Of a stretch of 64,000 bases of DNA, positions 9,419 to 63,968 are shown one piece after another; position 1 is the stretch's first letter; every line of letters starts with the position of its first letter. A program made the translations under genes and the position numbers. The stretch is from Eledone cirrhosa (taxonomy: Eukaryota). Where the stretch lies: positions 351,912,001-351,976,000 of the forward strand of contig OZ024742.1 of assembly GCA_964016885.1 (NCBI GenBank), given 5' to 3'. The notes under the pieces were generated by a model that saw nothing but the letters and a program-made list of their open reading frames with translations, was not told the DNA's origin and did no database searches.

Positions 9419-9473
9419 ACATATATATGTGTGTGTATTATAATACGTATATATATATATATTCATCAACCGC

Positions 9474-10226
9474 ATGCAGTTCTCTGGCTACAGCCAAAGA
9501 GACAGAGTCAGAGTTTACGAAGGAGCCATGGAAAAGTATAAGACCCTCATAGAACTGGACATGAAAGGAATTTGCCCACTATACAGGAGCAAATCATGGA
9601 ATAGCTTAGATAGAGCTAGACATAAGATAGGGAAGGCCACATCATGGTACGACAACCAGAGATATCAGAGTGTCATGTTTGTGGACGCCACCCCTGGAGG
9701 GAAATTAGCTAACCAGTGTAGAAAGGCCCTGAGAAAGACCCACTTAAAAATAAAGGTGGTAGAAAAGCCAGGAACCACCATAAAATCCCTGATCAGCAAA
9801 ATCTACCCTTTTAAGAAAACCCACTGTACCAATAGGAAATGTATCATATGTAAGGTGAACCCCCGGATAAACTGTAAAACTAGAAACGTAGTCTATAGCA
9901 TAAGATGTACAGAGGGTACTTGCAGAAACACGACAACAACATACATAGGTGAGACAGCTCGTAGCATAGGTGAAAGGATAGACCAACACTGGGGGGAACT
10001 AAAAGGACGAAAAAACGGGTCAGTACTATACGAACATGCTAGACAACAACATGACGGTAATATAGACAACATAGAAATTAGAATAATATCTAAACATAGG
10101 AATGACCCAGCAGATAGGCAAATTAGAGAGGCCAGTGAAATAGAAATTAGAAGACCAAAGCTAAACAGAAAGAATGAGTGGAACAACAACACCCAAACAA
10201 ACAACACTGACCTAAGAGAAGTATAA
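9474..10226 (+). pseudogene. PLE C-terminal ORF fragment: linker, Zn knuckle and GIY-YIG endonuclease (5'-truncated)
   Basis: C-x4-C-x2-C (CTNRKCIIC), NVVYSIRC..C..YIGET, R..H, E..EI..P.LN; begins directly after a (TA)n tract. Confidence 0.85.
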
Positions 10227-10755
10227 ATAAATAAGTAAATAAAATAAAATAAATAAAATAAGATAAATAAATACATACACAAGCACATAAACACACACTA
10301 GTCACCCAGCAGACACAACACTATACACACTAGTCACACATCACACATAACATTATACACACACGCAAACGCATGCGCATAGAAGACAAAATAAAATAAG
10401 ATAAACAAACAAGCAAATAAATAAATAAATATATAGACAGACTGAACAAAAAAAATGGCGTAGACATACAACACAACAGGAGGAACAATGAATATAACAC
10501 CACTGACGATGTTGCAGATGTGCAACGAAAGATTTATGTAAATTATGTAAACTATATATATATGTGTTTGTCTATATTGTATCTGTATTATTTTTGACCG
10601 CCGGTCAGTCAATGGCAACATTGAGGACCGAGTAAGTTAGATCGCAGATATATATATATAAAAGACAGCGAGAAGCGAAAACCAACCAAACAGTGAGTGT
10701 TATTAATTCTGGCAATATTAGGCACATATGACCCTCCCCAAATATAACAATATAT
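10227..10755 (+). mobile_element. 3' UTR/pLTR of the 9474 PLE
   Basis: A/CA-rich simple repeats, then an HHR, a GTGAGT donor-like site at 10693, and an end in (TA)n. Confidence 0.65.
10501..10547 (+). ncRNA. Type I hammerhead ribozyme motif
   Basis: CA-CTGACGA-T-GTTGCA-GATG-TGCAAC-GAAA-GATTTATGTAAAT-TA-TG; perfect 6 bp stem II, stem III apparently missing one base. Confidence 0.7.
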
Positions 10756-11728: not shown

Positions 11729-12610
11729 ACACAGACAACGTAATAGGACAAGTTCTAAAACCATTATATGCTTTAACGAGCCGTATTTGAAGCATTTATA
11801 CAGCAATGTGCCAGGCCAGGCCTCTTCTTCAAAGCTTTAGACGAGTGCTTCCCACCGTCGAGCAGGTACCACAGGATATTCAGCTGCCACAAGGTGAAGT
11901 TCTCCTGCTCCACCGAACCTAACATAGCAGACTACATGGCCAAAGCCAACGCGGTGAAGTTGAGGAAACTCGACCCTCAACAGCGGCGGGCGACTGGCGG
12001 TCACTAGGGCACGGAGGCCCCTTGCAGACAGTGTCTCCAACCACACTCCGATCCCCGCAGAGGAGAGCGTAATCGAATGTCGGGGGGAACTGAGCGGCAG
12101 AGGGCGTCAACCGCACCGACAGAACAGCACCCAGATAATCGGGGGAGTGATGTGGTAAACCAAGGGACCAGTGTTGTAAATGAGCAATATAACGACCGAA
12201 CTTGCAACTGCAGAGTGGGCACACGATGCCCCCTGCAGGGTAGATGCTTAATGAAGGGCCTAGTATATAAATGTGTGGTTAACACGCACACCACCAAGCG
12301 CACCTATATCGGCGCAACATCCACGGCCTTTAAATCGAGGATGTATAATCACACAAACTATTTCAAGGACCGGAGCAAGAGACATTCCACTAGGCTGGCG
12401 GACCTAATATGGGACTAAAAGACAACGGCACCCTGTATGATCTCAACTGGAGTATCGTTCAACAAACAAAATGCATATTCGGCCGGAAACAGGAAGTGTA
12501 GGCTATGCCTATCCGAGGCCATGGAGATAGTCAGATTGAAGGATGGTGCGATCAACCTGAAATCGGAGATTATAATGACGTGCAGACACCAGAGAAGGTG
12601 CACATCCCCC
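10790..12610 (+). pseudogene. Naiad-like PLE, degraded RT thumb plus GIY-YIG endonuclease
   Basis: VNFLDVTL..RPY..YV..SNHP, YNEALRRAGY, IICFNEPY, FPP..YHRIF, CNC..CPLQGRC..LVY..YIGAT, CRLCLSE..NLKSE..CRH; contains frameshifts and stops. Confidence 0.85.
11661..11727 (+). repeat. (ACT)n microsatellite inside the Naiad-like coding linker
   Basis: About 22 ACT units. Confidence 0.95.
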
Positions 12611-13499
12611 GCAAGCCGCAACCGGTCAGCCCAAGCTAAACGCATGCGGGGAAGGGACGCCAGTCTGAGCGGCGGCGTGGGTCCAAGAGATCAGACAACA
12701 TACCCGGTTGATTACCCCTGTGGAGTAAGGCGACGCAACCTATGCTGCCAATGGGACTCGGCACGTCATCCTAGTCAACAACATCGCATGAGCCGGGGCA
12801 CGGTGGCTCAACCTCTACGGATGGTCTGTCCCGTACCATACTTCAATAAGGCATACTATATCATCCACAGGGACATGCTCCTTTATTGCCTGTTCAAGCA
12901 CATCTTGCTTCTGTATCTTTTCAGTGGTATATGCATATTCTCCACGCACTCCATTACGTAACATACCATGGATTTTTCCATTTACAGACCAATGTATATC
13001 TTTGTATACTTTTCTTATATAATTCGGATGTAGGTATTTTTTTAATATGTATATATATTTTTTTAAATATATATTCTCTTTAATATATATTTTTTTTATA
13101 TATCTTTTTATATATATTTTTATGCATTATGTATATATTTTTTTATATATTTTTTTCATATATTCTGCATACATTCTTTCATATTTCATGCATGCTTCTA
13201 CTATATACGGTCTGGGAATACACTTTACGTTAATATCATGAACTCCCCATATTTAGCCTTGCTTGAGGTGTCTATACGCAGATTTATCCCCGTTGGCAGC
13301 ATAATATGAACACCATCTGCATGTACAACCCTATGCCTTTCTTACATGTATTTTTTGTACATTCTTTTATGTGTGTGTAAATGTGTGTACATGTATACCT
13401 ATGTGTAAATATATATGTGCGAGTCTGTGTGTGCGTGTATGCACACGTGGTTGGCGGACAATAGATGTAGTGTATGTGTGTGTGTATGTATAGGTGTGC

Positions 13500-28761: not shown

Positions 28762-30565
28762 TTAGTTAAGCAAAACAAGACCACACATTTCACAAGGAAG
28801 ACATTATTAAAAGATTGTCAACACATTTGGCAGCGGCACGCTCCCCACTCCAAGTAGCAAACTAAAATCAACCCTAGAATAGGAATGAGAAATGGGATGA
28901 CAAATAACGAATCCCCAGGTATAATAACCCTAGGAAGGCCCCTACCAACTCCAGTAGAACCCCTAGAAGGAATAGACCTAGAAATATCACCTGCCTTAGC
29001 CCCCCATTCTCATCTAATCTAGCCACTAATATCCCTAAACGCTTCTTCTCTATACTATCTAAACATTCCCCACCCCAACCATAGAGATTACAAACTCTTT
29101 AATAAAAATAACATTAAAATCTCCACAACACCTAACCTAGCTAGCCACATCGGATTTATTAGCCATCATAAACTAAGACAGTATAACTCCCACACCGCGG
29201 TACTACCACCCCTATCAAATACACCACGTCACTACACCAATAATTACTCTAGTAGCACACCTCCCCCATCTAATCCTTCTACCACTGACCTACCGCTTAG
29301 GTTAAACTACCCTACTCTCCCTAACCGCAGAAGCAATTGCAACTGCCGTTACCCTAATGCATGCACATTAAATGGACACTGGCTGACACCCAACATAGTC
29401 TATAGGTGCACGGTTAAAACTGCTTCGAATACCAGCTCTTATATCGGGTCTACCTCTAACCCTTTTAAGGTACGCAATAACGCGCACTCTTTTTCCTTCC
29501 GAGACCCTAGCAACAGATGTTCGACATCGCTAGCTAGGCTCATTAAAAACCTTAAATTAAGCAACGTTCAACGCTCACTAAAATGGGATATCGTGGCTAG
29601 GGCCCAACCGTTCAATGGACGAAAAAATCTTGTGATCTCTGTATTACAGAAGCATATTACATAACTCAATCACGACCTCTACCGATTAACGATAGAACGG
29701 AGGTAACTTTTAGCTGTCAACATCGAAGGGCTAATTCCTTTGCCAATATAATATTTGACCCAACTTAGCCCCATTTTTACTTGTAGCTAATAAGTTAAAT
29801 AGCTACGACTAATTTAGATAATTATAAGTTACCTTCCCTACATTGTCTCTCAATTAAAACAATTAAAAATTAGCACTTAACTATAAACTACCCACAATGT
29901 ATAATCTCTCAAAGAGTTACTTCCCCTGAAGCCACCCTCTAAAAATTAAGATAAATATGTCCTTTGGCAGCCATCTTGTTACCAATAGGCAGATCTCACA
30001 CAATGCAGCCTCGACAGATGAATACTGCTTGATTATGGATGACAACTGATGCAACCAAGACACCATAGTGAAAAACCAATATATGGAACATTATATTAGG
30101 TAACGTTCTCTCCTTATTTTAATTTGTATTCCTTTGAAGTTCCGATGAGCCGCTCTGTTTTTTAAATATGTTAATTATTTTCAACTGTACCAGATCAATT
30201 AAGATATATAGTCATCTGATCCAGAAATATCATATGGAGTAGCAAAACAATTGTAAACGGACATTATAATTATTAATATTATTATTATTATTCTCTACAT
30301 CCCTTACATCAAAATAAAATATGTTGACAATCTTTTAATAATGTCTTCCTTGTCAAATTCGTGGTCTTGTTTCGCTTAACTAATGAATATTTCCAGCTCT
30401 GCGCACCTAACTTCTGCATGAACCCAGCCACCTAGCTGATTTCTACTGCATATTGCACATTGAGCACATGCCCTTACGCTTTGGCTTCTAACTAATTCAC
30501 CAATCTCTCCTCTCATATCTCCTCTCCTATCTCCATCTCTCTCTTTAAGATTGGCTACTCTTGAA

Positions 30566-36831: not shown

Positions 36832-38271
36832 CTATTGGGGTGATAACCCGTTTAGTTTTGGTTTAAATTTGTTAAGGAATAGATTTTCTTTGTTTATTCT
36901 TTGTTGCTGTGTGGACGAATCTGAGCACTTGTAGAAGGGGAAGATTTTAAAGTTGGGTAGTGTCATTCCTGCGCAGTTCGCAATATGGCTGCTCAAGGGG
37001 ATTTTTCTTGTGTTAGCGTCCCGGATTTGTTGGCGGTGGATGGTCATTCTTTTGCGTAATGAGGTGCCCGTCTGTCCTATGTAGTTGTGTTTGCACCCAC
37101 CGCAAGTTATTGCGTAAATCAAGTTCTCCGAGTTGCAGGTGAAATTGTTTGTTACTGTAAATGTTTGGCCATCTTTGAATGTAAATGTTTGTCCTTCAGT
37201 GAGGTAGAGGCACGTTCCACAATTTGTTCTACCACATTTGGTAACTGTAGGGTTGAGGATTAGTTTGGGTATATTTGGTCCAGTGAGAATGCGTTTAAGT
37301 GATTCGGGTTGTCTTTTACTTTTAAGGATCTTGTGTGTTTCAAGAATAGACTTCATTTTTACATCTTTAAGTAGGATGGGGAGGTTTTTGTGTAGGTGAT
37401 CAAACATTTCGGTATTTCTGGGGTTGAAAGTGGATACATATGGCAGGGTGTTGAGTGTGGTTTTCTGTTTTGGATTGTTAAGTTGATGGGGATTTAGGTG
37501 TTTTGCCCTGTCTATTCCATTGTTGATTATTTCAAGTGGAAAGACTCTTAAGATAAGGGTGCCTTTTAGTTCCTTTAGTCTTTGCTCCCGTTTAGGTGGA
37601 TCTGATACTATGGTACATATACGTTTGGCCAAATTGTAAGGAATGTTAAGTTTTGTATGTTTTGGGTGACTTGATGTGAAAAAGAGGTATTGCTTGGAAT
37701 CTGTGGGTTTATAGAATATATTTGTATCTAATTTCCCGTCTATTACAGAGATGAGAATATCCAAGAAGGCTAATTCCTTAGGATTGGATTCCATTGTGAA
37801 TTGTATGTTATTATCTATGCTGTTTATCATGTTTTTAAACGTAGTAAGTGAGTTCATGTCTTCTTGCCATAGGATAAAGCAGTCGTCTAGATATCTTTTC
37901 CAATTGGCTTTGAGGTGTGTGTGGAAAGAGTCTCCAAATAAGAGAAGGGACTGACTGTATATTTGTTGTTCATGGAATCCCATGACTAGGTTGGCATATG
38001 TGGGTGCTACTTTCGTGCCCATTGCCGTACCTGATACTTGTCTGTATGTTGAACCATTGAATGTGAAGTAGTTATTTTGTAGGATAAAGCGGAGTCCGTC
38101 AGTGATAAAATCTGTGTTGATGCGTGTCGGTATTTCTGATGGGTGTGTGTTAAGCCAGTATTGGACTGCTGTTATTCCATAGTTGTGAGGTATGTTTGTG
38201 TAGAGGTTTATTACGTCAAAGGAGACAAGAATTGTATTTGCACTTACTGTTTTAGGGAGGTGTTTCAGCAT
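36832..38271 (-). CDS. PLE reverse transcriptase plus GIY-YIG endonuclease (open frame extends upstream to ~38529; N-terminus missing)
   Basis: FDVINLYTNI, GTAMGT, RYLDD, FLD, YKPTDSKQYL..SSHP, CGRTNCGTC, NLIYAITC..C..YIGQT; upstream FYGLPKLHK and LRPII. Confidence 0.93.
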   Translation of the reverse strand: MLKHLPKTVSANTILVSFDVINLYTNIPHNYGITAVQYWLNTHPSEIPTRINTDFITDGLRFILQNNYFTFNGSTYRQVSGTAMGTKVAPTYANLVMGFHEQQIYSQSLLLFGDSFHTHLKANWKRYLDDCFILWQEDMNSLTTFKNMINSIDNNIQFTMESNPKELAFLDILISVIDGKLDTNIFYKPTDSKQYLFFTSSHPKHTKLNIPYNLAKRICTIVSDPPKREQRLKELKGTLILRVFPLEIINNGIDRAKHLNPHQLNNPKQKTTLNTLPYVSTFNPRNTEMFDHLHKNLPILLKDVKMKSILETHKILKSKRQPESLKRILTGPNIPKLILNPTVTKCGRTNCGTCLYLTEGQTFTFKDGQTFTVTNNFTCNSENLIYAITCGGCKHNYIGQTGTSLRKRMTIHRQQIRDANTRKIPLSSHIANCAGMTLPNFKIFPFYKCSDSSTQQQRINKENLFLNKFKPKLNGLSPQ

Positions 38272-38842
38272 ATCAAGGTCATCTCGTATGTAGCTCTGTA
38301 TATGTTGTAGAAAGGGTTTCAGTAGGATGTCCAGAAAGTTGCTAAGTCTGTGGGTTTCACATGTAGGGCCTGCTATAATTGGCCTGAGTTTTAGGTCTTC
38401 TGGTGGTGTTAGATCAATGTAATTGTTGGTTGAGGTGTCACATGCATCGTTTATGGGTTTACATTTGTGGAGTTTCGGTAAGCCGTAAAAAGAGCTTGTA
38501 TTGCATTTGAAGTGGCTTATATAGTTAAACTATTTTGTGGTTAAGCTGTTGCGGTATTTATTCAGTAAGGTCACCTCAACCAACAATTACATTGAACTAA
38601 CACCACCAGAAGACCTAAAACTCAGGCCAATTATAGCAGGCGATTGCTAAATCTGACCTTTATAATATAACCCACACCCCAAATAACTTCTCATTCACTA
38701 CCAGAAAGGGACACAGCAGTCAACCTGTTGTTGCTACCTAGATGAAAACTGCTATGAAATCCCACAATGAATTTTATACTTCAATTTTCAAATCTCAAAT
38801 TTTAACTCTTCGTATTATTAATTTTTCTTAATATTAATCAAC

Positions 38843-43128: not shown

Positions 43129-43340
<212 letters not shown>

Positions 43341-43341
43341 G

Positions 43342-43505
<164 letters not shown>

Positions 43506-43530
43506 CATATATACATATATATATATATGG

Positions 43531-44905
43531 TATGGTTGATTGTAGACTTGTTCTATATGTGACGGTATTTTAACGATAGTTATAGCTCTGATTCATCTGA
43601 ATTATTGAGCCCTCTGCCGCTCATATCGAATTTCGTTTATCGTGAACTCGTGCGCCGATTTTTCGATACTCGATCTTTCTAATATATTTAGCTCTGGACA
43701 TAGCTATCCACCAGTTAATTTTATTGCTCATTTTTTGTCGATTCTATTGAGTGATGAATAGCTTTTGTTTTATTTTAACATGTCTATTGAGCACTCTAAT
43801 TCGATATGTGTATTTCCACATTCACTCGAATTGTTTTCGCGGATATAGGGGTCATCTCCCTTGTCTAATGCCATGTGCGTTTTTCACCGCTAGTTGACTC
43901 CTCTGCCGCCAGGAAAAAACTCGTTGATAACGTAAACTCCGTTCCACTTGCTCTAGTAGGCTTTTATATTTATATGTGAGCTGATAGAGTACAGTCTAAG
44001 GATTTACAGAAACCCATGAAGCTAGATTTAACACCTTTCTAGTGGGTCCGGGTATGATTTTACATTCATTTAAATTATTGACGTATTGTTTTATTGATAT
44101 TTTTTATCTGTTTGGCCCGAATCTTCCTTTATCGATTTTAAATCGTATGGTTGATTGTAGACTTGTTCTATATGTGACGGTATTTTAACGATAGTTATAG
44201 CTCTGATTCATCTGAATTATTGAGCCCTCTGCCGCTCATATCGAATTTCGTTTATCGTGAACTCGTGCGCCGATTTTTCGATACTCGATCTTTCTAATAT
44301 ATTTAGCTCTGGACATAGCTATCCACCAGTTAATTTTATTGCTCATTTTTTGTCGATTCTATTGAGTGATGAATAGCTTTTGTTTTATTTTAACATGTCT
44401 ATTGAGCACTCTAATTCGATATGTGTATTTCCACATTCACTCGAATTGTTTTCGCGGATATAGGGGTCATCTCCCTTGTCTAATGCCATGTGCGTTTTTC
44501 ACCGCTAGTTGACTCCTCTGCCGCCAGGAAAAAACTCGTTGATAACGTAAACTCCGTTCCACTTGCTCTAGTAGGCTTTTATATTTATATGTGAGCTGAT
44601 AGAGTACAGTCTAAGGATTTACAGAAACCCATGAAGCTAGATTTAACACCTTTCTAGTGGGTCCGGGTATGATTTTACATTCATTTAAATTATTGACGTA
44701 TTGTTTTATTGATATTTTTTATCTGTTTGGCCCGAACCTTCCTTTATCGATTTTAAATCGTATGGTTGATTGTAGACTTGTTCTATATGTGACGGTATTT
44801 TAACGATAGTTATAGCTCTGATTCATCTGAATTATTGAGCCCTCTGCCGCTCATATCGAATTTCGTTTATCGTGAACTCGTGCGCCGATTTTTCGATACT
44901 CGATC

Positions 44906-44912
<7 letters not shown>
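43531..44912 (+). repeat. Tandem array of a 615 nt unit, about 2.25 copies, ORF-less, inside (TA)n; one HHR-like motif per unit
   Basis: TATGGTTGATTGTAGAC at 43531, 44146 and 44761; copies nearly identical; CTGATAG..GAAACCCA..TGGGTC at 43981-44048 and 44596-44663. Confidence 0.9.
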
Positions 44913-45542
<630 letters not shown>

Positions 45543-45569: not shown

Positions 45570-48500
45570 ATCCACACCTGAGCGCTCACTCCTCAGTAAT
45601 GGCCTTCGCTTCATACCCCACACTCCGCACAGCGACGAGTTCCGCACCCGACAGGAGGTCGAGCGATTCGTGCGACCTACGAAGCTACAGGCACCTTTCG
45701 GTCAAACGCCACCGGCTCCGAACGCCCCAGACCCGTTTCTCGCCCTGGGCAGACGACCATCGTCTTGGACGATGACCCCAGGGAAATTTAGCACCTTGGA
45801 CGCGTTCGTCGATATCAGCCGTGGCGCAGTAAATCGCTTCGACTTCCGCCACCGGTCCCAATGGAATAACATCTTACCGGGCGAACTCCTCGCTCTCCGC
45901 TCCCTCCGTAGCCGAGCTAACATCGTTATCAAATCGGTGGGCAAGGAAGGCGCCATGGTGGTGTGGCGCGCTGGCCTCTACACGGCTGAAGCCCTCAGGC
46001 AGCTCCGTAACCCCCTCTTCTACCGGCCTCTACCCTCCGATCCCATACCCCTCTACCAACAACAAGTTTCCTACACCATCCAACACCTTGCCTCCTCCTC
46101 CCCCCACCGCTTCCCACCTCATCGTCCGCACCCCCGCACCCCCACCATCTACTTCCTCCACAAAATCCACAAACCCGACAGCACCTGCCGCCCCATCTTC
46201 TCCGCTTGCAACTGCCTCACCGAACTCATCTCCGCCTTTCTTGACTCTATCCTCGCCCCCCTCGTCACCACCCTCCCCTCCCACATCTCCGACACCAACC
46301 ACGCCCTTCGCCTATTCGACTCATTCACCTTCCCACCCGGCCCACAGCCCTTCCCCTTCACCCTAGATATCAAGTCGCTCTATACAGTCATCCGCCACGC
46401 CGACGGCCTACGTGCCCTCAAGCACTATCTCGACCTTCGCCCATTCCCCATCCCCTCCACCCCACCCTCTTTCGCCTCGCAGAGCTGGTCCTCACCCTCA
46501 ACTGTTTCTCCTTCTCGGGTGAGTTTTACCAACAGGTCACGGGGGTAGCCATGGGCACAAAAATGGGCACAAACTATGCCAACCTTTTTGTTGGCCATAT
46601 TGAGGCCCAAATCTTTGCCCAGTACACCGGCCTCACGCCCGAACTGTACCGTCGTTACATCGACGACTGTATCGGAGCCACGACACTCACCCGAGAACAG
46701 CTCGACTCCTTTCTCTCCTTCTTCTGCTCCTTCCACCCCTCCCTCCACTTCACCACCTCTATCTCCACGACCCACGTCCACTTCTTAGACATATCCGTCG
46801 TCTTCGACCCCTCCCATCACTCCCACGTCACCTCCGATTTCTTCAAACCCACCGACTCCCACTCCTACCTCGACTTCACCTCTTCCCATCCCACACACAC
46901 TAAACACTCAATTCCCTACTCCCAACTCCTCAGGATCCGCCGCCTCTGTAGCCGAGATGCTGACTTTGAGACCCAGGCCCTTTCCCTAATAGGCCATTTC
47001 ATCCGCAGAGGTTAACCCACGACCAGCCCACCCCACCCCATCCATCTCGTCCACAACCCTCTCACTCGCGCCCGTGCTGTCCACCGCTCCAGCACCCTCA
47101 TCCCACGCCACCGCACACCCACCCATCGTCTCCCCTTCCCCATCACCTACCACCCCTCCACCGCACCATCCTCCGCCACTTCCGACGCCTCCAGTCCGAC
47201 CCCTCCACCCCCCACATCTTCCCAGCTCCACCACTCCCCTCCTTCAAACGCGCACACAATCTCCGCACCCTTCTCGTCCGCAATTCCCTAACCCCCAACC
47301 CACGACCCCCCCCCGGGTCCTTTCCCTGTTCCAGGCCTCGTTGCAACACCTGACCCCACACCACCAACACCACCACATTCCAGGGTCCCCACGACCACTC
47401 TCTCTCTGTCCGGCATGCCTTCCGCTGCACCTCCTCCAACCTAGTCTACGGACTTCGCTTCACGGAGTACAGCGTACCCTACGACGGACAGACTCGACGT
47501 CGCCTGGCGGACCGCTTTACCGAATACCTCCGAGATATTCGTCTCGGCGGTAGTTCCCCCATCGCCCGCTGCTTTGGCGCCCCTGGACATTCCGCGCTCC
47601 ACCTCACAGTCTGTGGCCTACTCCAATGCCACGGAACAACCGCCACACTCCTCAGGGTCGACAACGCACCATCTTCACCCTACAGACCCACACTCCCCCC
47701 GAGCTGAATCCCCCACCCCTATTTCTTTAGCCTTCGACCGCCCTGTCCCCCCTACACACACCTATCCCCCACTAACACCATTAACACACTCCTTCTTGTC
47801 ACCCCACAACTAACAATACTAACACCCCCACACAAACCTGACCACCCTTCATCAACTAACATTACTAACATCCTTCCTTTCTTCTAACCCTCCCCTTTTC
47901 ACGCACACACCCACCGGTACATATATACACGCACTCACACTAACCACACACCCTACTACCACCACTAACCCTCACACCCACACATCCACTCCCACCACCC
48001 CACAACTAATACCACTACCCTCTCCCGACCCCACGCACACGAACACACGCAGCCACTTACACCACCAACTCTACACACCCTAACACCACTGACCTCCACT
48101 AACACCCGCATTCAACCCTTTCCCCAGCACAGTGTACTAACACCCACTAACACCCCCTTCACCACACACACACCACTACACTACACTCCCTCCACCGGCC
48201 CCTACACCTTTGTACCCCACACAACACCCCTTCTCACACACACACTCTCACATCGCACTAACACCTCTACTAATAAACACACCCTCCCCACCCCACCTTT
48301 CACACCTACCCATCCTCTCCCCTGTCCACCGCACCTCCGCACACACTGACACACCGACTTTCTCCACCTGCCATTCCCCTCGACTGCTGCTATGCCCTGA
48401 ATCTCTGACCACCTCTCCGCACACACATATCCACAACCCTCCTCCTGCCTTGACCCTCTGACCACTTCATGTTGCGCGTTCACCCCACATCTCCCCTCTT

Positions 48501-49257
48501 CTGACCAACCCAACCACGGATTACACATATTGGACATCGCTCCCACGAATCAACTCCATCACAAGGTAATTACCCGGCATCCCACCACATCCTCTACGGA
48601 ACTACCTTAGGAACTTACCCACGGACATACACTCAACAAAATTGTTTTTTCCACACGCCACCTACATGCACAATACGTATAAACACCACACACACGTGCA
48701 TACCACCACATATTTACACACTCAGCCTCCGGAATGATCTGCCCCCTCACTCACCCCCTCTGACGCCTCCCCATCCGCACACGCGCACACACACCGACCT
48801 GTACCCCACCCCGCACACACCTTTTCCTGAACATGCAACCCCGTTCTTCCCCCAACTCTCACATACACACACACACACACACACGTACACCTACACACAC
48901 ACACTAAGTTCAACCCTCCCCGCTCAGACACCCCGCCTCCCTCTTCCCACTCCACCCGCCACCACCCCTACACGCCCCACACCTTCCACCACCTGTTTAA
49001 TTTCATGTTTATTTTAATTTTTATTATGCTTTTATATTTATTTTCATTTGTACCGTTTCCTCTCACCCCCTTTTTTCTAAATGTCTCTCCCCGTCTCCCC
49101 TACACCCTATTGGAACTCTCTTCCCACACACCTTTCGCCTGAAGAAGGGCTTATGCCCGAAACGTCGTTCCCCACCACCACCCCACTCTCAAGAGCGTGA
49201 AATTAATAAACCTTTGTTCGTACTGCCTCTCTGTTTTGTTCCCGTTCAATTTTTCAC

Positions 49258-49260
<3 letters not shown>
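45570..49260 (+). mobile_element. C-rich Neptune-like PLE with a degraded RT-EN (~45575-47710) and 3' UTR/pLTR
   Basis: [90 protein letters not shown]; frameshifts and stops; (TA)n on both sides. Confidence 0.92.
49137..49168 (+). ncRNA. Canonical minimal type I hammerhead ribozyme
   Basis: GC-CTGAAGA-A-GGGC-TTAT-GCCC-GAAA-CG-TC-GT; palindromic ACGT stem III (dimer-type); AATAAA at 49205. Confidence 0.9.
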
Positions 49261-56511: not shown

Positions 56512-57073
56512 AATTATTATAAAAAAACAGGAGGCTGGACTGGTGTACATTCTTCAAAGGTTTATTATACTATGATCATTTCAATGACCGGGTTCAGTAT
56601 GCATCCGGTGATATCTTCAGGTATTAGAAATATAACAAAGGAATATAACACATAAAGTCCATGGGGCTGAAAATCAGAGACAAGAGGACGACCGACTATT
56701 TAGCAGCTTCTATCTCAGTCGGTCGCCCTCGAGGTAGAAGCTGCAAATTAGTCGGTCGTCCTCTTGTCACTGATTTTCAGACCCATGGAATTTATATGTT
56801 ATATTCTTTTTGTTGTATTTCGAATATCTGATGATATCACCGGATTCATACTCAACCCAGTCATTGAAATGATCATAGTATAATAAACGTGTCAAGGATT
56901 TACACCAGTCCTAACTCCTGTTATTTTATAATAATTAACTCCGTACTCGCACCACCAACTACACAAAAGAAGACGGGTGAGTTGCATTACATTGAGTACT
57001 CTCCATAACATTACATCGAGATTGACCATACAGAATGGCCAGTTCTATGCAGTGGTCGACCAACACACCTAAA
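56512..57073. mobile_element. Family D fold-back element (~200 bp arms plus ~140 nt tail) with degenerate HHRs
   Basis: 56512-56715 inverts 56728-56935; minus strand CTGAAGA..GAAC-CCGG-TC at ~56583-56622, plus strand CTGATGA at 56828. Confidence 0.8.
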
Positions 57074-57737
57074 TATATATATATATATATATTATAAAGA
57101 ATTAATATCTAGTAACATATATATACATACAGATGCATATCATTGCTAGCAAATATATAGGTTTTGTCTTAGTAACTTTGTGGTTCAATGCATGGGGTTG
57201 CAAAACAATAATATGAGAGACGTAAAATAAGAAAATTATAAAATTAACTTACTTACTAAAATATCACTTCCAACTAATTAGTTTCTGGAATGGAATAAAT
57301 ATATTTTCCGATGAAGATACAGAGAAGCATTCCGCCGTCAGGGAGGTCTATTCTCATCTAAGTATCCAGGCAAAGCGTGGACACTGGAAACTTAATAAAC
57401 AATAATTCAGTGGATAGGAAATAGCAAAGCGTGGACTGAATTCCTAGCCATTACTAGATATTAATTCTTTATAATTATCTCCAAATTATTTGTCGAGCAA
57501 TGTTGGCCATGACTGCTGCTATGGTAGCAGGCCGCTGTCTTATTAACAAACCTCTTTCCACTGATTGACCTCGATGTCACGTGATTGATTCTTTTTGAAT
57601 TTGCCACCGACGCAGAGGCAGTGATTTTCTCAATGGCTAGGAATTCAGTCCACGCTTTGCTATTTCCTATCCACTGAATTATTTTTTAATAAGTTTCCAG
57701 TGTCCACGCTTTGCCTGGATACTTAGATGAGAATAGA

Positions 57738-57817
57738 CCTCCCTGACGACGGAATGCTTCTCCGTATCTTCTTCGGAAAATATATTTATTCCATTCCAGA
57801 AACTAATTAGTTGGAAG
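57738..57817 (+). ncRNA. Type I hammerhead ribozyme, canonical core
   Basis: CCTCC-CTGACGA-C-GGAATG...CATTCC-A-GAAA-CTAATTAG-TT-GGAAG; palindromic stem III. Confidence 0.85.
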
Positions 57818-58255
57818 TGATATTTTAGTAAGTAAGTTAATTTTATAATTTTCTTATTTTACGTCTCTCATATTATTGTTCTGCAACCCCATGCATTGGA
57901 CCACAAAGTTACTAAGACAAAACCTATATAGTTGCTAGCATTGATATGCATCTGTATGTATATATATGTTACTAGATATTAATTCTTTATAATTATCTCC
58001 AAATTATTTGTCCAGCAATATTGGCCATGACTGCTGCTATGGTAGCAGGCCGCTGTCTTATTAACAAACCACTTTCCACTGATTGACCTCGATGTCACGT
58101 GATTGATACTTTTTGAATTTGCCACCGACGCAGAAGCAGTGATTTTCTCAATGGCTAGGAATTCAGTCCACGCTTTGCTATTTCCTATCCACTGAATTAT
58201 TTTTTAATAAGTTTCCAGTGTCCACGCTTTGCCTGGATACTTAGATGAGAATAGA

Positions 58256-58335
58256 CCTCCCTGACGACGGAATGATTCTCCGTATCTTCTTCGGAAAATA
58301 TATTTATTCCATTCCAGAAAGTAACTAGTTGGAAG
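58256..58335 (+). ncRNA. Second-unit hammerhead (stem III mutated)
   Basis: Same as 57738 but GAAA-GTAACTAG-TT. Confidence 0.7.
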
Positions 58336-58387
58336 TGATATTTTAGTAAGTAAGTTAATTTTATAATTTTCTTATTTTACGTCTCTC

Positions 58388-58471
<84 letters not shown>

Positions 58472-59574: not shown

Positions 59575-59810
59575 TTTTGAATCAGTGAGCGAGTTTGAAG
59601 TTAGAAATATGAGCTTTCACCGTATTTTTGACTAAAGAAATTGTTAGCCTAGCCTGATAGTGGTGTTTAGTACCCTCAGAGAAATGGAAAAAGATGAGTA
59701 TTGACCAATACTCATCTTTTTTCCATTTCTCTGAGGATTCTAAACCCCACTATCAGGCTAACAATGTCTTTAGTTACAAAAACGGTGAAAGGTTATATTT
59801 CTAAATTATC
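59575..59810. mobile_element. Family E fold-back element
   Basis: Arms centred at 59704-59705 (GAGTATTG-AC-CAATACTC). Confidence 0.8.
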
Positions 59811-60847
<1,037 letters not shown>

Positions 60848-61999: not shown

Positions 62000-62220
62000 T
62001 ATATCAACATCATCTTCATCATCATCATGAACATCATCATCATCATCATCATCATCCCCATCATCATCATCATAACCATCAACATCACCATCATCATCAT
62101 CATCAACATCATCATCATCGCCATCATCAGCATGGTCATCATCATCATCACCATCATCATCATCATTATCATTGTCATCATCATCATCCCCATCGTCATC
62201 CTCATCTTCATCTTCATCAT
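62000..62220 (+). repeat. (CAT)n microsatellite
   Basis: Imperfect CAT run. Confidence 0.95.
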
Positions 62221-62357
62221 CTGTGGCATCAACATTGGCATGTTGATGCCACAGATGTTATCATTAATACCACCATCCCCAACATCACCAAACGTATCAA
62301 AATAGCAATAAGTGAAACACACAAGGAAGATACCACCAGCAGTAATATCATTAGAGA

Positions 62358-63968
62358 ACATCAACACCACCAACAATAACACCACCAACACCAACACCAA
62401 CAGCAATAACAACAACACCAACACCATCAACAACACCACCAACACCAACAACACCAACACCACCAACACCAACACCAATAACAACAACACAACCAACACC
62501 AACACCACCAACACCAACAACACCAATACCATCAACACCAACAATACCAACACCACCTACACCAACAACAACACCGCCAACACCAACAACACCAACACCA
62601 CCAACACCAACATCAACACCACCAACACCAACAACACCAACACCACCAACACCAACATCAACACCACCAACACCAACAACACCAACAACATCAACACCAA
62701 CAACAATAACACCAACACCAACACCATCAACACCAACAATACCAACACCACCAACACCAACAACAACGCCACCAACACCATCAACACCAACACCACCAAC
62801 ACCAACAAGAACACCACCAACACCAACAATACCAACACCATCAACACCAACACCAATAACAACAACACCAACACCATCAACACCAACAATAGCAACACCA
62901 CCAACACCACCAACACCACCAACACCAACACCACCAACACCAACACCAATAACAACAACACCAACACCATCAACACCAACAACACCAACACCACCACCAC
63001 CACCAACAACACCAATAACAACAACACCAACACCACCAACAACAACACCAAAACCAACACCGACAACACCTACAACAGCAACAACACCAACAACACCACC
63101 AACACCACCACCAACAACAACACCAGCAACACCACCAACACCACCACCACCAACAACACCACCAACACCAGCACCATCAACAACACCAACAACACCACCA
63201 ACACCACCACCACCAACAACACCAGCAACACCACCGATACCAACAACACCGACAACACCAACAACACCAACAACACCACCACCACCAACAACATCACCAC
63301 CACCAACTACACCACCAACACCGACAACACCACCACCACCGACAACATCACCACCACCAACTACACCACCAACACCGACAACACCACCACCACCAACAAC
63401 ATCACCACCACCAACAACACCACCACCACCAACAACACCACCACCACCAACATCACCACCACCGACAACATCACCACCACCACCACCAACTACACCACCA
63501 CCACCGACAACACCACCACCGCCAACAACACCAACAACACCACCACCACCAACAACATCACCACCACCAACTACACCACCACCACCAACAACATCACCAC
63601 CACCAACAACACCACCACCACCAACAACACCACCACCACCAACATCACCACCACCGACAACATCACCACCACCACCACCAACTACACCACCACCACCGAC
63701 AACACCACCACCACCAACAACACCAACAACACCACCACCACCAACAACACCACCACCACCAACTACACCACCACCACCGACAACACCACCACCACCAACA
63801 ACACCAACAACACCAACAACACCAACAACACCACCACCACCAACAACATCACCACCACCAACTACACCACCAAAACCGACAACAACATCACCACCACCAA
63901 CAACATCACCACCACCAACAACATCACCACCACCGACAACACCACCACCACCGACAACACCGACAACA
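62358..63968 (+). repeat. (CAC/CAA)n degenerate trinucleotide satellite with higher-order repeats
   Basis: About 1.6 kb almost only A/C; a ~189 nt block recurs (about 63345-63533 and 63534-63722). Confidence 0.9.

Follow-up and report, generated by a model that had tools for sequence, protein, structure and literature searches.

Introduction

Non-LTR retrozymes of metazoans are dispersed, non-coding and AT-rich elements arranged in tandem, every unit having a single type I hammerhead-like motif; a circular intermediate and Penelope-type mobilisation have been proposed for them (PMC7229834; Li et al. 2026, 10.64898/2026.07.22.740005), and ligated circles have been put forward as many-lap templates of retrozymes (PMC7229834, PMC4209133). 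Penelope-like elements, in which inverted 5'-truncated arms and (TA)n targets have been described (PMC8557442), carry minimal hammerheads of low activity in vitro (PMC4209133), and the Naiad and Chlamys elements and MRC1 are reported to form tandems without a canonical hammerhead (PMC8557442). Among the natural hammerhead variants described so far are U3-A8, an A6a insertion of low activity, and stems II that are very weak or reduced to one pair (PMC3088659).

We analysed a 64,000-nt window of the Eledone cirrhosa genome (GCA_964016885.1, contig OZ024742.1, positions 351,912,001 to 351,976,000, forward strand), to which the coordinates below refer and which holds a tandem array of a 615-nt unit. 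The unit shares the general features of the metazoan retrozymes listed above, a circular intermediate and Penelope-type mobilisation being proposed for it as well, and its length lies within the 51-972 bp range given by Li et al. 2026 (10.64898/2026.07.22.740005). Its tandem units are dispersed and non-coding, and their core is a variant of the canonical type I hammerhead. We regard it as a new family of the retrozyme type, in which this variant core is conserved. The element behaves like a Penelope-mobilised retrozyme, fails hammerhead membership on G8/A9 and on stem II, and is not to be filed as a proven ribozyme.

Results

Organisation of the array

The insertion occupies 1,388 nt on the + strand (43530-44917) and, with a period of 615 nt, comprises 2.26 units; it is 5'-truncated and its 3' end coincides with the site that is fixed in the family. 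About 2.25 copies with one difference had been noted in the original prediction, and the single mismatch was located at 44122/44737. Unit 1 (43531-44145), from whose first position all unit coordinates are counted, is followed by unit 2 (44146-44760) and by a partial unit 3 (44761-44917), which ends at the main priming site. (TA)n target tracts are present on both sides, as anticipated, at 43129-43528 on the left (the tract seen in the window) and at 44912-44993 on the right. The array had also been described as devoid of open reading frames, in agreement with a longest ATG ORF of 47 aa in the circularised unit.

The hammerhead-like motifs were found at their predicted positions, namely CTGATAGA at 43981 and 44596, AGAAAC, and GTC at 44046-44048 and 44661-44663. 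The variant core strand, C3 U4 G5 A6 U7 A8 G9 plus one further letter (A, T, G or C in relatives), spans 43981-43988, with its second copy at 44596-44603. It is followed by a putative stem II (43989-44007), of which the closing G10.1-C11.1 pair alone is largely kept, and by an extra A with G12 A13 A14 A15.1 (44008-44012), GAAA being present in 115/115 units; this extra A, reported earlier as a trait in common with the 518- and 536-nt families, is indeed seen. Stem III (44012-44047) pairs ACCC with GGGU and CUAGA with UCUAG and is almost invariant, without covariation. GUC corresponds to unit 516-518, and a cut is predicted 3' of 44048 from the sequence and from the footprint of 5' ends, so that unit 519 is denoted +1.

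Past the predicted cut lie the zone of unit 519-546 (44049-44076), where 5' ends accumulate among the genomic copies, a putative splice-donor-like GGGTATG with its boundary after GG (44050-44056; GTAAG and GTGAG in relatives), and GCCCG/ACCCG at 44116-44120, which could pair with CGGGU right after the cut. An AT-rich, intron-like stretch runs from the donor to TGATTnTAG (unit 522 to 15, 44052-44160); the bases after its AG (RCWT) could, if spliced, pair with the 5' strand of stem I, with weak covariation. The main internal priming site TCTTTCTAATATAT at 44904-44917 constitutes the fixed 3' end, its internal copies ending at 43687 and 44302. A second, minor priming site at unit 48-49 (43565-43579) elsewhere forms the outer end of inverted arms and is unused at this locus.

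Other elements of the window

Two families of 518 and 536 nt, about 78% alike, were observed at 57160-58390 and 59945-60780. The best reading of both is a minimal hammerhead of type I (CUGAYGA-C...C-A-GAAAC-6 nt-GUU, with ACYUCC in stem I). Each terminates on its 3' side at an internal CATAT, carries a donor-like GTAAGT past the cut site and has a 5' arm in inverted orientation. The suggested kinship of the 615-nt array with them was not supported by sequence comparison, which gave no match.

A Penelope-like element on the - strand (36832-38529) matches RVT_1 and GIY-YIG, and a broken one on the + strand (45571-49258) carries a minimal hammerhead, CTGAAGA...GAAACGTC, at 49139. GIY-YIG-like pieces occur at 9444-10226, 12008-12961 and 29023-29664, a hammerhead-like CTGACGA at 10503, and a long degenerate array of ATC- and AAC/ACC-rich trinucleotides at 62003-63968. 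Long palindromic two-armed insertions lie between (TA)n tracts at 44994-45373, 2465-2633, 56520-56930 and 59580-59800; the first abuts the array, and an identical sequence flanks locus L064. The stretch at 2692-2911, just before a (TA)n tract, has an A/B-box-like head and is one of 3,592 candidates genome-wide; from the box consensus we take it to be a tRNA-like SINE. Its tail resembles the 3' end of the family in 28/36 nt (E 0.065), a likeness that perhaps reflects a shared priming signal, or chance.

Genomic distribution of the family

A DNA search of the 3.0-Gb E. cirrhosa genome returned 579 candidates, 39 of which were scored, and the listed matches were 98-100% identical. The exact 3' junction of the array with (TA)n occurs 747 times genome-wide, and two older versions of the junction occur 1,578 and 322 times, the reversed controls giving 0 in every case. 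These exact junctions amount to at least 2,647 dispersed insertions, and the homologues whose existence had been proposed as a check are therefore abundant. Full units form a ladder of subfamilies of 600-624 nt with identities down to 67%. The array had been called very young, which is right for its own subfamily and wrong for the family as a whole. As the core persists throughout this ladder, in sequences 67-100% alike, the single amplification of a dead founder, one of the two origins initially envisaged, is unlikely. In 569 older matches CTGATAG is followed by T, G or C, a lead that came from a public contig. Most differences between subfamilies fall in a fast-evolving segment (unit 293-434, 43823-43964), and well-conserved hairpins are found at unit 158-292 and 33-90.

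A 645-nt contig of public run X2, which may derive from the same source sample as the assembly, closes on itself with a period of 615. None of the matching public runs (seven runs of five studies, all as contigs) was an RNA run containing the array, and the match of run X1 (share 0.16) rests mostly on short AT-rich pieces. A duplication introduced by the assembly would be suggested by two copies separated by one base difference, but hundreds of dispersed arrays carry unique flanks and the self-closing contig, even if possibly from the same sample, has the same period; we give this explanation practically no weight. The array is real, and an assembly artefact is excluded at the family level.

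Insertion sites and fixed 3' ends

In 38 of 39 arrays (1.3-11 units) the last unit breaks off at one common internal position, unit 152-157 (TCTTTCTAATATAT), and continues into (TA)n, two of them with a substitution just before the end site; the exception terminates at unit 48. The common 3' end is located in a TA-rich internal patch, 254 nt downstream of GUC, and priming is therefore internal. The 5' ends, evaluated on the first 100 listed junctions, are spread all round the unit: 65 insertions reach at least one unit, 38 at least two, and 14 extend past the 4 kb examined. At least two TA units terminate 114/181 5' flanks. Target-primed reverse transcription of a + strand RNA characteristically leaves such a pattern, in which the 3' end is fixed and the 5' ends are ragged.

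A second fixed end, at unit 48-49, was found at 15 loci, nine of which abut a head-to-head inverted arm and four of which are single arms, while the sequence examined stops short of the end in the other two. Inverted 5'-truncated arms are rare overall (2/196 loci). The features of non-autonomous Penelope-like elements, i.e., a fixed 3' end, variable 5' truncation and a microsatellite target, are all present. Matches to target-site duplications were detected five times in 181 loci, and only those of L041 (42 nt) and L056 (26 nt) lie outside simple repeats; both may predate the insertion. At L034, L145 and L367/L368 two copies of the family stand tail to tail within one short (TA)n tract.

None of the 181 5' flanks contained an ORF that runs on into the unit, and no autonomous partner sharing the end was found either in the flanks or at the ends of the Penelope-like ORFs within the window. 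Pattern searches of the genome, short of a genome-wide partner survey, confirmed no other family with the same core context.

Formation of the arrays

The difference between units is 0.47 nt inside one array (410 pairs) and 18.2 nt when loci are compared. In 14 of the 53 multi-unit arrays all units share fixed private variants, 18 altogether, which indicates that each new variant passed through one monomer and was then re-expanded. Five arrays speak against a pure rolling model, as they contain variants common to some laps only, mostly step-like and not in perfect laps; these fit template switches, multimeric templates or later exchange. Dimer circles were also considered and rejected, as no clean alternating pattern of variants occurs. 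The youngest arrays are the longest: 38/100 have two units or more, compared with 2/59 older insertions above 914 nt and a maximum of 1,329 nt among 60 held-out loci. Young long and old short arrays are the opposite of slow expansion after insertion.

Helitrons and Replitrons have a CTRR 3' end and a fixed TC 5' end. They were discarded as a source of the family, whose older 3' ends read CTAC or CTAT and whose 5' ends vary. More generally, an origin at the DNA level, either by rolling circles of this type or by short insertions later expanded through unequal crossing-over, appears very unlikely to us. The 3' end of the young subfamily does read CTAA followed by T, step-like variants occur in the five arrays mentioned, and local tandem amplification has been proposed by Li et al. 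2026 (10.64898/2026.07.22.740005); the CTAC/CTAT ends of older subfamilies, the two-armed insertions with their second fixed end and the decrease of length with age all argue against it. The fixed internal 3' ends, the variable 5' ends, the second priming site with head-to-head arms and the near identity of units within arrays indicate that the family is probably copied by Penelope-type reverse transcription around an RNA circle. The rolling reverse transcription postulated at the outset is hence supported by the insertion footprints.

Conservation of the variant core

The 115 full units used for the analysis of the core were picked by the 3' junction alone. L184, with a 6-nt deletion spanning GUC, was left out of alignment A1. 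CTGATAG proved to be the consensus, the point on which the original prediction had asked for verification, with A8 in 115/115 and G9 in 114/115 units. Each position of the type I U-turn strand C3 U4 G5 A6 is kept in 114-115 of the 115 units. With C3 kept, neither the canonical G8-C3 pair (or U3-A8) nor A9 is present. G12 A13 A14 A15.1, U16.1, H17 and stem III, in contrast, are as a hammerhead requires, being invariant and not covarying. At all 13 remaining canonical core positions (C3 U4 G5 A6 U7, G12 A13 A14 A15.1, C15.2, G16.2, U16.1, C17) no variant is common to two loci of the 115 units, 56% of the unit being invariant. Six of the 615 shifted patterns are equally conserved, therefore whole blocks are conserved and not the core alone; other stretches of the unit, in runs of 16-17 nt, show the same conservation. 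CTGATAT was found at three loci and CTGATGG at two, and positions 8-9 are therefore not strictly fixed.

A canonical consensus elsewhere would have spoken against the variant, and two CTGANGA patterns gave 0 copies in the animal's own genome. The letter after CTGATAG is A in 94 units, T in 15 and G in 6. Between the two origins first considered, a swap or a 1-nt insertion, this free variation favours the swap of G8 and A9; the insertion fits less well, since it would make A9 the free letter. The 518- and 536-nt sister families read CUGAYGA-C-G...C-A-GAAAC, and judged from the sequences a core of A8-G9 with a free extra letter fits better in the register of these and of the Penelope-like hammerheads.

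Other readings of the motif were also explored. A search for CTGATAG...CAGAAACC in other families with a different upstream base gave 17 matches, which are 13 decayed copies of the family and four unrelated-looking sequences. A scrambled or split core of type-SGC/CSG was rejected, as a motif inventory of both strands and a helix scan revealed no canonical CUGANGA block with reordered stems. The sole CUGAUGA (unit 220-226, in the oldest subfamilies only) sits in a plain hairpin and has no GAAA partner.

Structure predictions

Stem II had been described as well formed. It can be drawn in the subfamily of the array, but across 27 distinct relatives it is only 66.7% paired: the closing G-C is kept in 26/27 and the second pair (U-A) in 3/27, and one subfamily (6/115 units) has T at 10.1. 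None of the 29 proposed pairs shows a compensatory change among the 27 distinct sequences. In stem I the C1.1-G2.1 pair is kept; next come either a 2x2 mismatch and wobble pairs or, past a 9-nt bulge, a helix of 7 bp that is 98.9% paired without covariation.

The hammerhead fold reached -12.0 kcal/mol (-6.7 with stem I in register), compared with -21.3 kcal/mol for the predicted optimum, and both this optimum and the consensus of the alignment are folds other than the hammerhead. The whole unit folds better than its shuffles (z -2.0 to -5.4, 25 shuffles each). The Rfam models returned no hammerhead match at E<=10 in the array and no ribozyme in the window, a weak test because the canonical 518-nt sister gave no match either. 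Neither strand offered another ribozyme candidate. On predicted structure alone the ribozyme looks crippled. In published mutagenesis, cores of such kind were near-dead, and in the complete double-mutant scan of one hammerhead only the C3-G8 swap rescued this region (PMC9901934).

5' ends of the genomic copies

The 5' ends of the copies accumulate within 28 nt after GUC (+1 to +28), where 18/86 were found and 3.5 were expected, with a scan-corrected P of 5e-5, the correction being applied because this interval was picked after seeing the data. Stratification by TA microhomology changed the expectation for this sample to 3.6. The pile-up was repeated in older subfamilies (14/58, 2.5 expected; L215 is a doubtful member of these 14, and L249 was dropped as a duplicate of L248), in long arrays (5/35, 1.5 expected) and in held-out loci (12/60, 2.7 expected), giving 49 ends over the four samples, with about 10 expected. 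Its edge is sharp, with 13 first-lap ends just 3' of the GUC site and one within the 28 nt on its 5' side. Stops are more frequent in the first lap (13/91) than in later laps (5/154; P 0.002), and in three two-armed insertions both arms stop at unit 524-540.

The copy at locus L072 has its first letter precisely at +1, with no microhomology, and that at L357 begins at +2, two events that are not significant alone. Most piled-up ends fall not at +1 but between +12 and +24, a stretch whose TACAT and ATT are similar to the target; trimming to TA microhomology must therefore be assumed. The pile-up in the 28 nt after GUC suggests that the RNA is cut at this site, and is most simply explained if a fraction of the RNAs carry their 5' end at this position.

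The 5' junction of L072 is blunt, and its neighbour there is the 3' terminus of a different palindromic element, also abundant, with GAAAC-stem-GTC; the join is possibly a template switch. A second peak of 5' ends at -62 to -48, which a TATA-driven start would give, was dismissed (pooled 11, 3.4 expected, scan P 0.10; 0 in the 60 held-out loci, 1.1 expected), as was an initiator at unit 536-541 serving as RNA start, most piled-up ends being upstream of it.

Alternative explanations of the 5' boundary

If the hammerhead were vestigial, the boundary would be a transcription start at +1/+2, the arrays would result from jumps of the reverse transcriptase between terminal repeats of a linear read-through RNA, and the conserved letters would be promoter or protein sites. 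The absence of G8 from the core, the loss of stem II in relatives and the mild excess of stops in later laps (5, 1.5 expected) agree with this account, and we assume that CTGATAG could fit a GATA site and the C/G at +1/+2 a pyrimidine-purine start. Penelope-like elements also have internal promoters, some of them without a canonical hammerhead (PMC8557442). We nevertheless consider it unlikely: unless it was inherited, a start on the very GUC that closes the GAAAC stem III would have to be put down to chance, the jumps would need to succeed flawlessly many times over to build arrays that are seamless and reach 11 units, stops prevail in the first lap, and the TATA-like run lies about 80 nt upstream. 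Another cutter might instead act nearby, i.e., the first step of splicing at the GGGTRWG donor (before +4), a host nuclease or the ribozyme of another family in trans, with a host ligase closing the circle. The donor-like motif is conserved, its variation staying within what donor rules allow (GTAAG, GTATG, GTGAG; G+5 in 115/115), a TnTAG acceptor-like site follows about 110 nt downstream, and introns adjoin the hammerhead in Penelope elements (PMC4209133). L072 (+1) and L357 (+2), however, start upstream of the donor cut and the putative intron is retained in all arrays; as we also found in the literature no precedent for a seamless circle made by a spliceosomal or nuclease route, this explanation seems improbable.

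A slightly smaller probability was assigned to the absence of any cut at GUC, with the reverse transcriptase stalling at the 3' base of stem III during the first pass and another site giving rise to the circles. Stalling would also predict the first-lap excess, since later laps read an RNA-DNA hybrid, and it is consistent with the better folding of the whole unit compared with shuffles, but stem III is weak (4 + 5-6 bp), other hairpins show no comparable peak and no further ribozyme candidate emerged on either strand.

Discussion

The results lead us to propose, tentatively and with slightly less than even confidence, that the array belongs to a non-coding mobile family copied into (TA)n by a Penelope-type mechanism from RNA that is cut after GUC by a slow variant ribozyme and then circularised. 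The steps of this cycle differ in strength. Transcripts of the array + strand would very probably be the template, primed by base-pairing between the (TA)n of the target and the internal UAAUAUAU site, and the reverse transcriptase would probably be borrowed from a GIY-YIG Penelope-like element as putative partner. It is fairly likely that long arrays would derive from rolling round a circular monomer, and that cut but unligated RNA would give short copies of up to 254 nt. For the cutting step, the A8-G9 core might itself cut, slowly and perhaps with the help of a protein or as a dimer, although here doubt outweighs belief; self-cleavage by the variant core, as read from the sequence, carries the same reservation. 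A still bolder form, which we find a shade more doubtful, would be a naturally selected hammerhead that cuts without G8, with an A8-G9 core, with C3 left unpaired and with stems I and II nearly absent, and that drives a circular-RNA retroelement through thousands of insertions, its slowness leaving both cut monomers and circles as templates.

If the core cuts, G8, which is treated as catalytic, and its pair with C3 would be dispensable in a natural and successful ribozyme, and searches based on CUGANGA descriptors would overlook whole retrozyme families. If it does not cut, a large retrozyme-like family would have lost its ribozyme and would still build seamless arrays, which bears on whether Penelope-like elements need hammerheads or hammerheads ride on them. 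Either way, the insertion footprints constitute a genomic read-out of the proposed cut, circularise and roll cycle.

The 615-nt family differs from metazoan retrozymes in its core, CUGAUAG in place of CUGANGA, in its poor stems I and II, in its long stem III, described there as short and palindromic, and in that cleavage and circles are predictions. Fixed internal priming sites and a 5' pile-up are absent from the retrozyme descriptions in the available text of PMC7229834 and Li et al. 2026. With the minimal hammerheads in the pseudo-LTRs of Penelope-like elements (PMC4209133), the family has in common an extra nucleotide between 9 and 10.1, the G10.1-C11.1 pair, a short helix I (2 bp in D. 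virilis) and a splice signal beside the ribozyme. Those hammerheads, however, have A8 only with U3 and a long helix II (PMC4209133), whereas the 615-nt family combines A8 with C3 and G9, has a weak helix II and is devoid of an ORF. An uncompensated A8 with G9 is absent from the variants in the main text of PMC3088659, its supplements aside, and titles and abstracts of the published literature gave no CUGAUAG hammerhead variant, although the supplements of PMC3088659 and PMC8557442 may list one. The scrambled type-SGC/CSG hammerheads (PMC10085705) could rescue a canonical core elsewhere in the unit, but the CUGAUGA of the 615-nt family has no GAAA partner.

The non-autonomous Chlamys elements, e.g., MRC1, and the Naiads resemble the family in their head-to-tail multi-copy insertions and inverted 5'-truncated arm, and their microsatellite targets, (TA)n for Naiads, mask target duplications as they do here (PMC8557442). 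Unlike Chlamys/MRC1, the 615-nt family showed no 3' similarity to an autonomous family and still has, where the stops occur, a conserved remnant in which the hammerhead can be recognised. Tandem retrozymes and their link with Penelope are already in print (PMC7229834; 10.64898/2026.07.22.740005).
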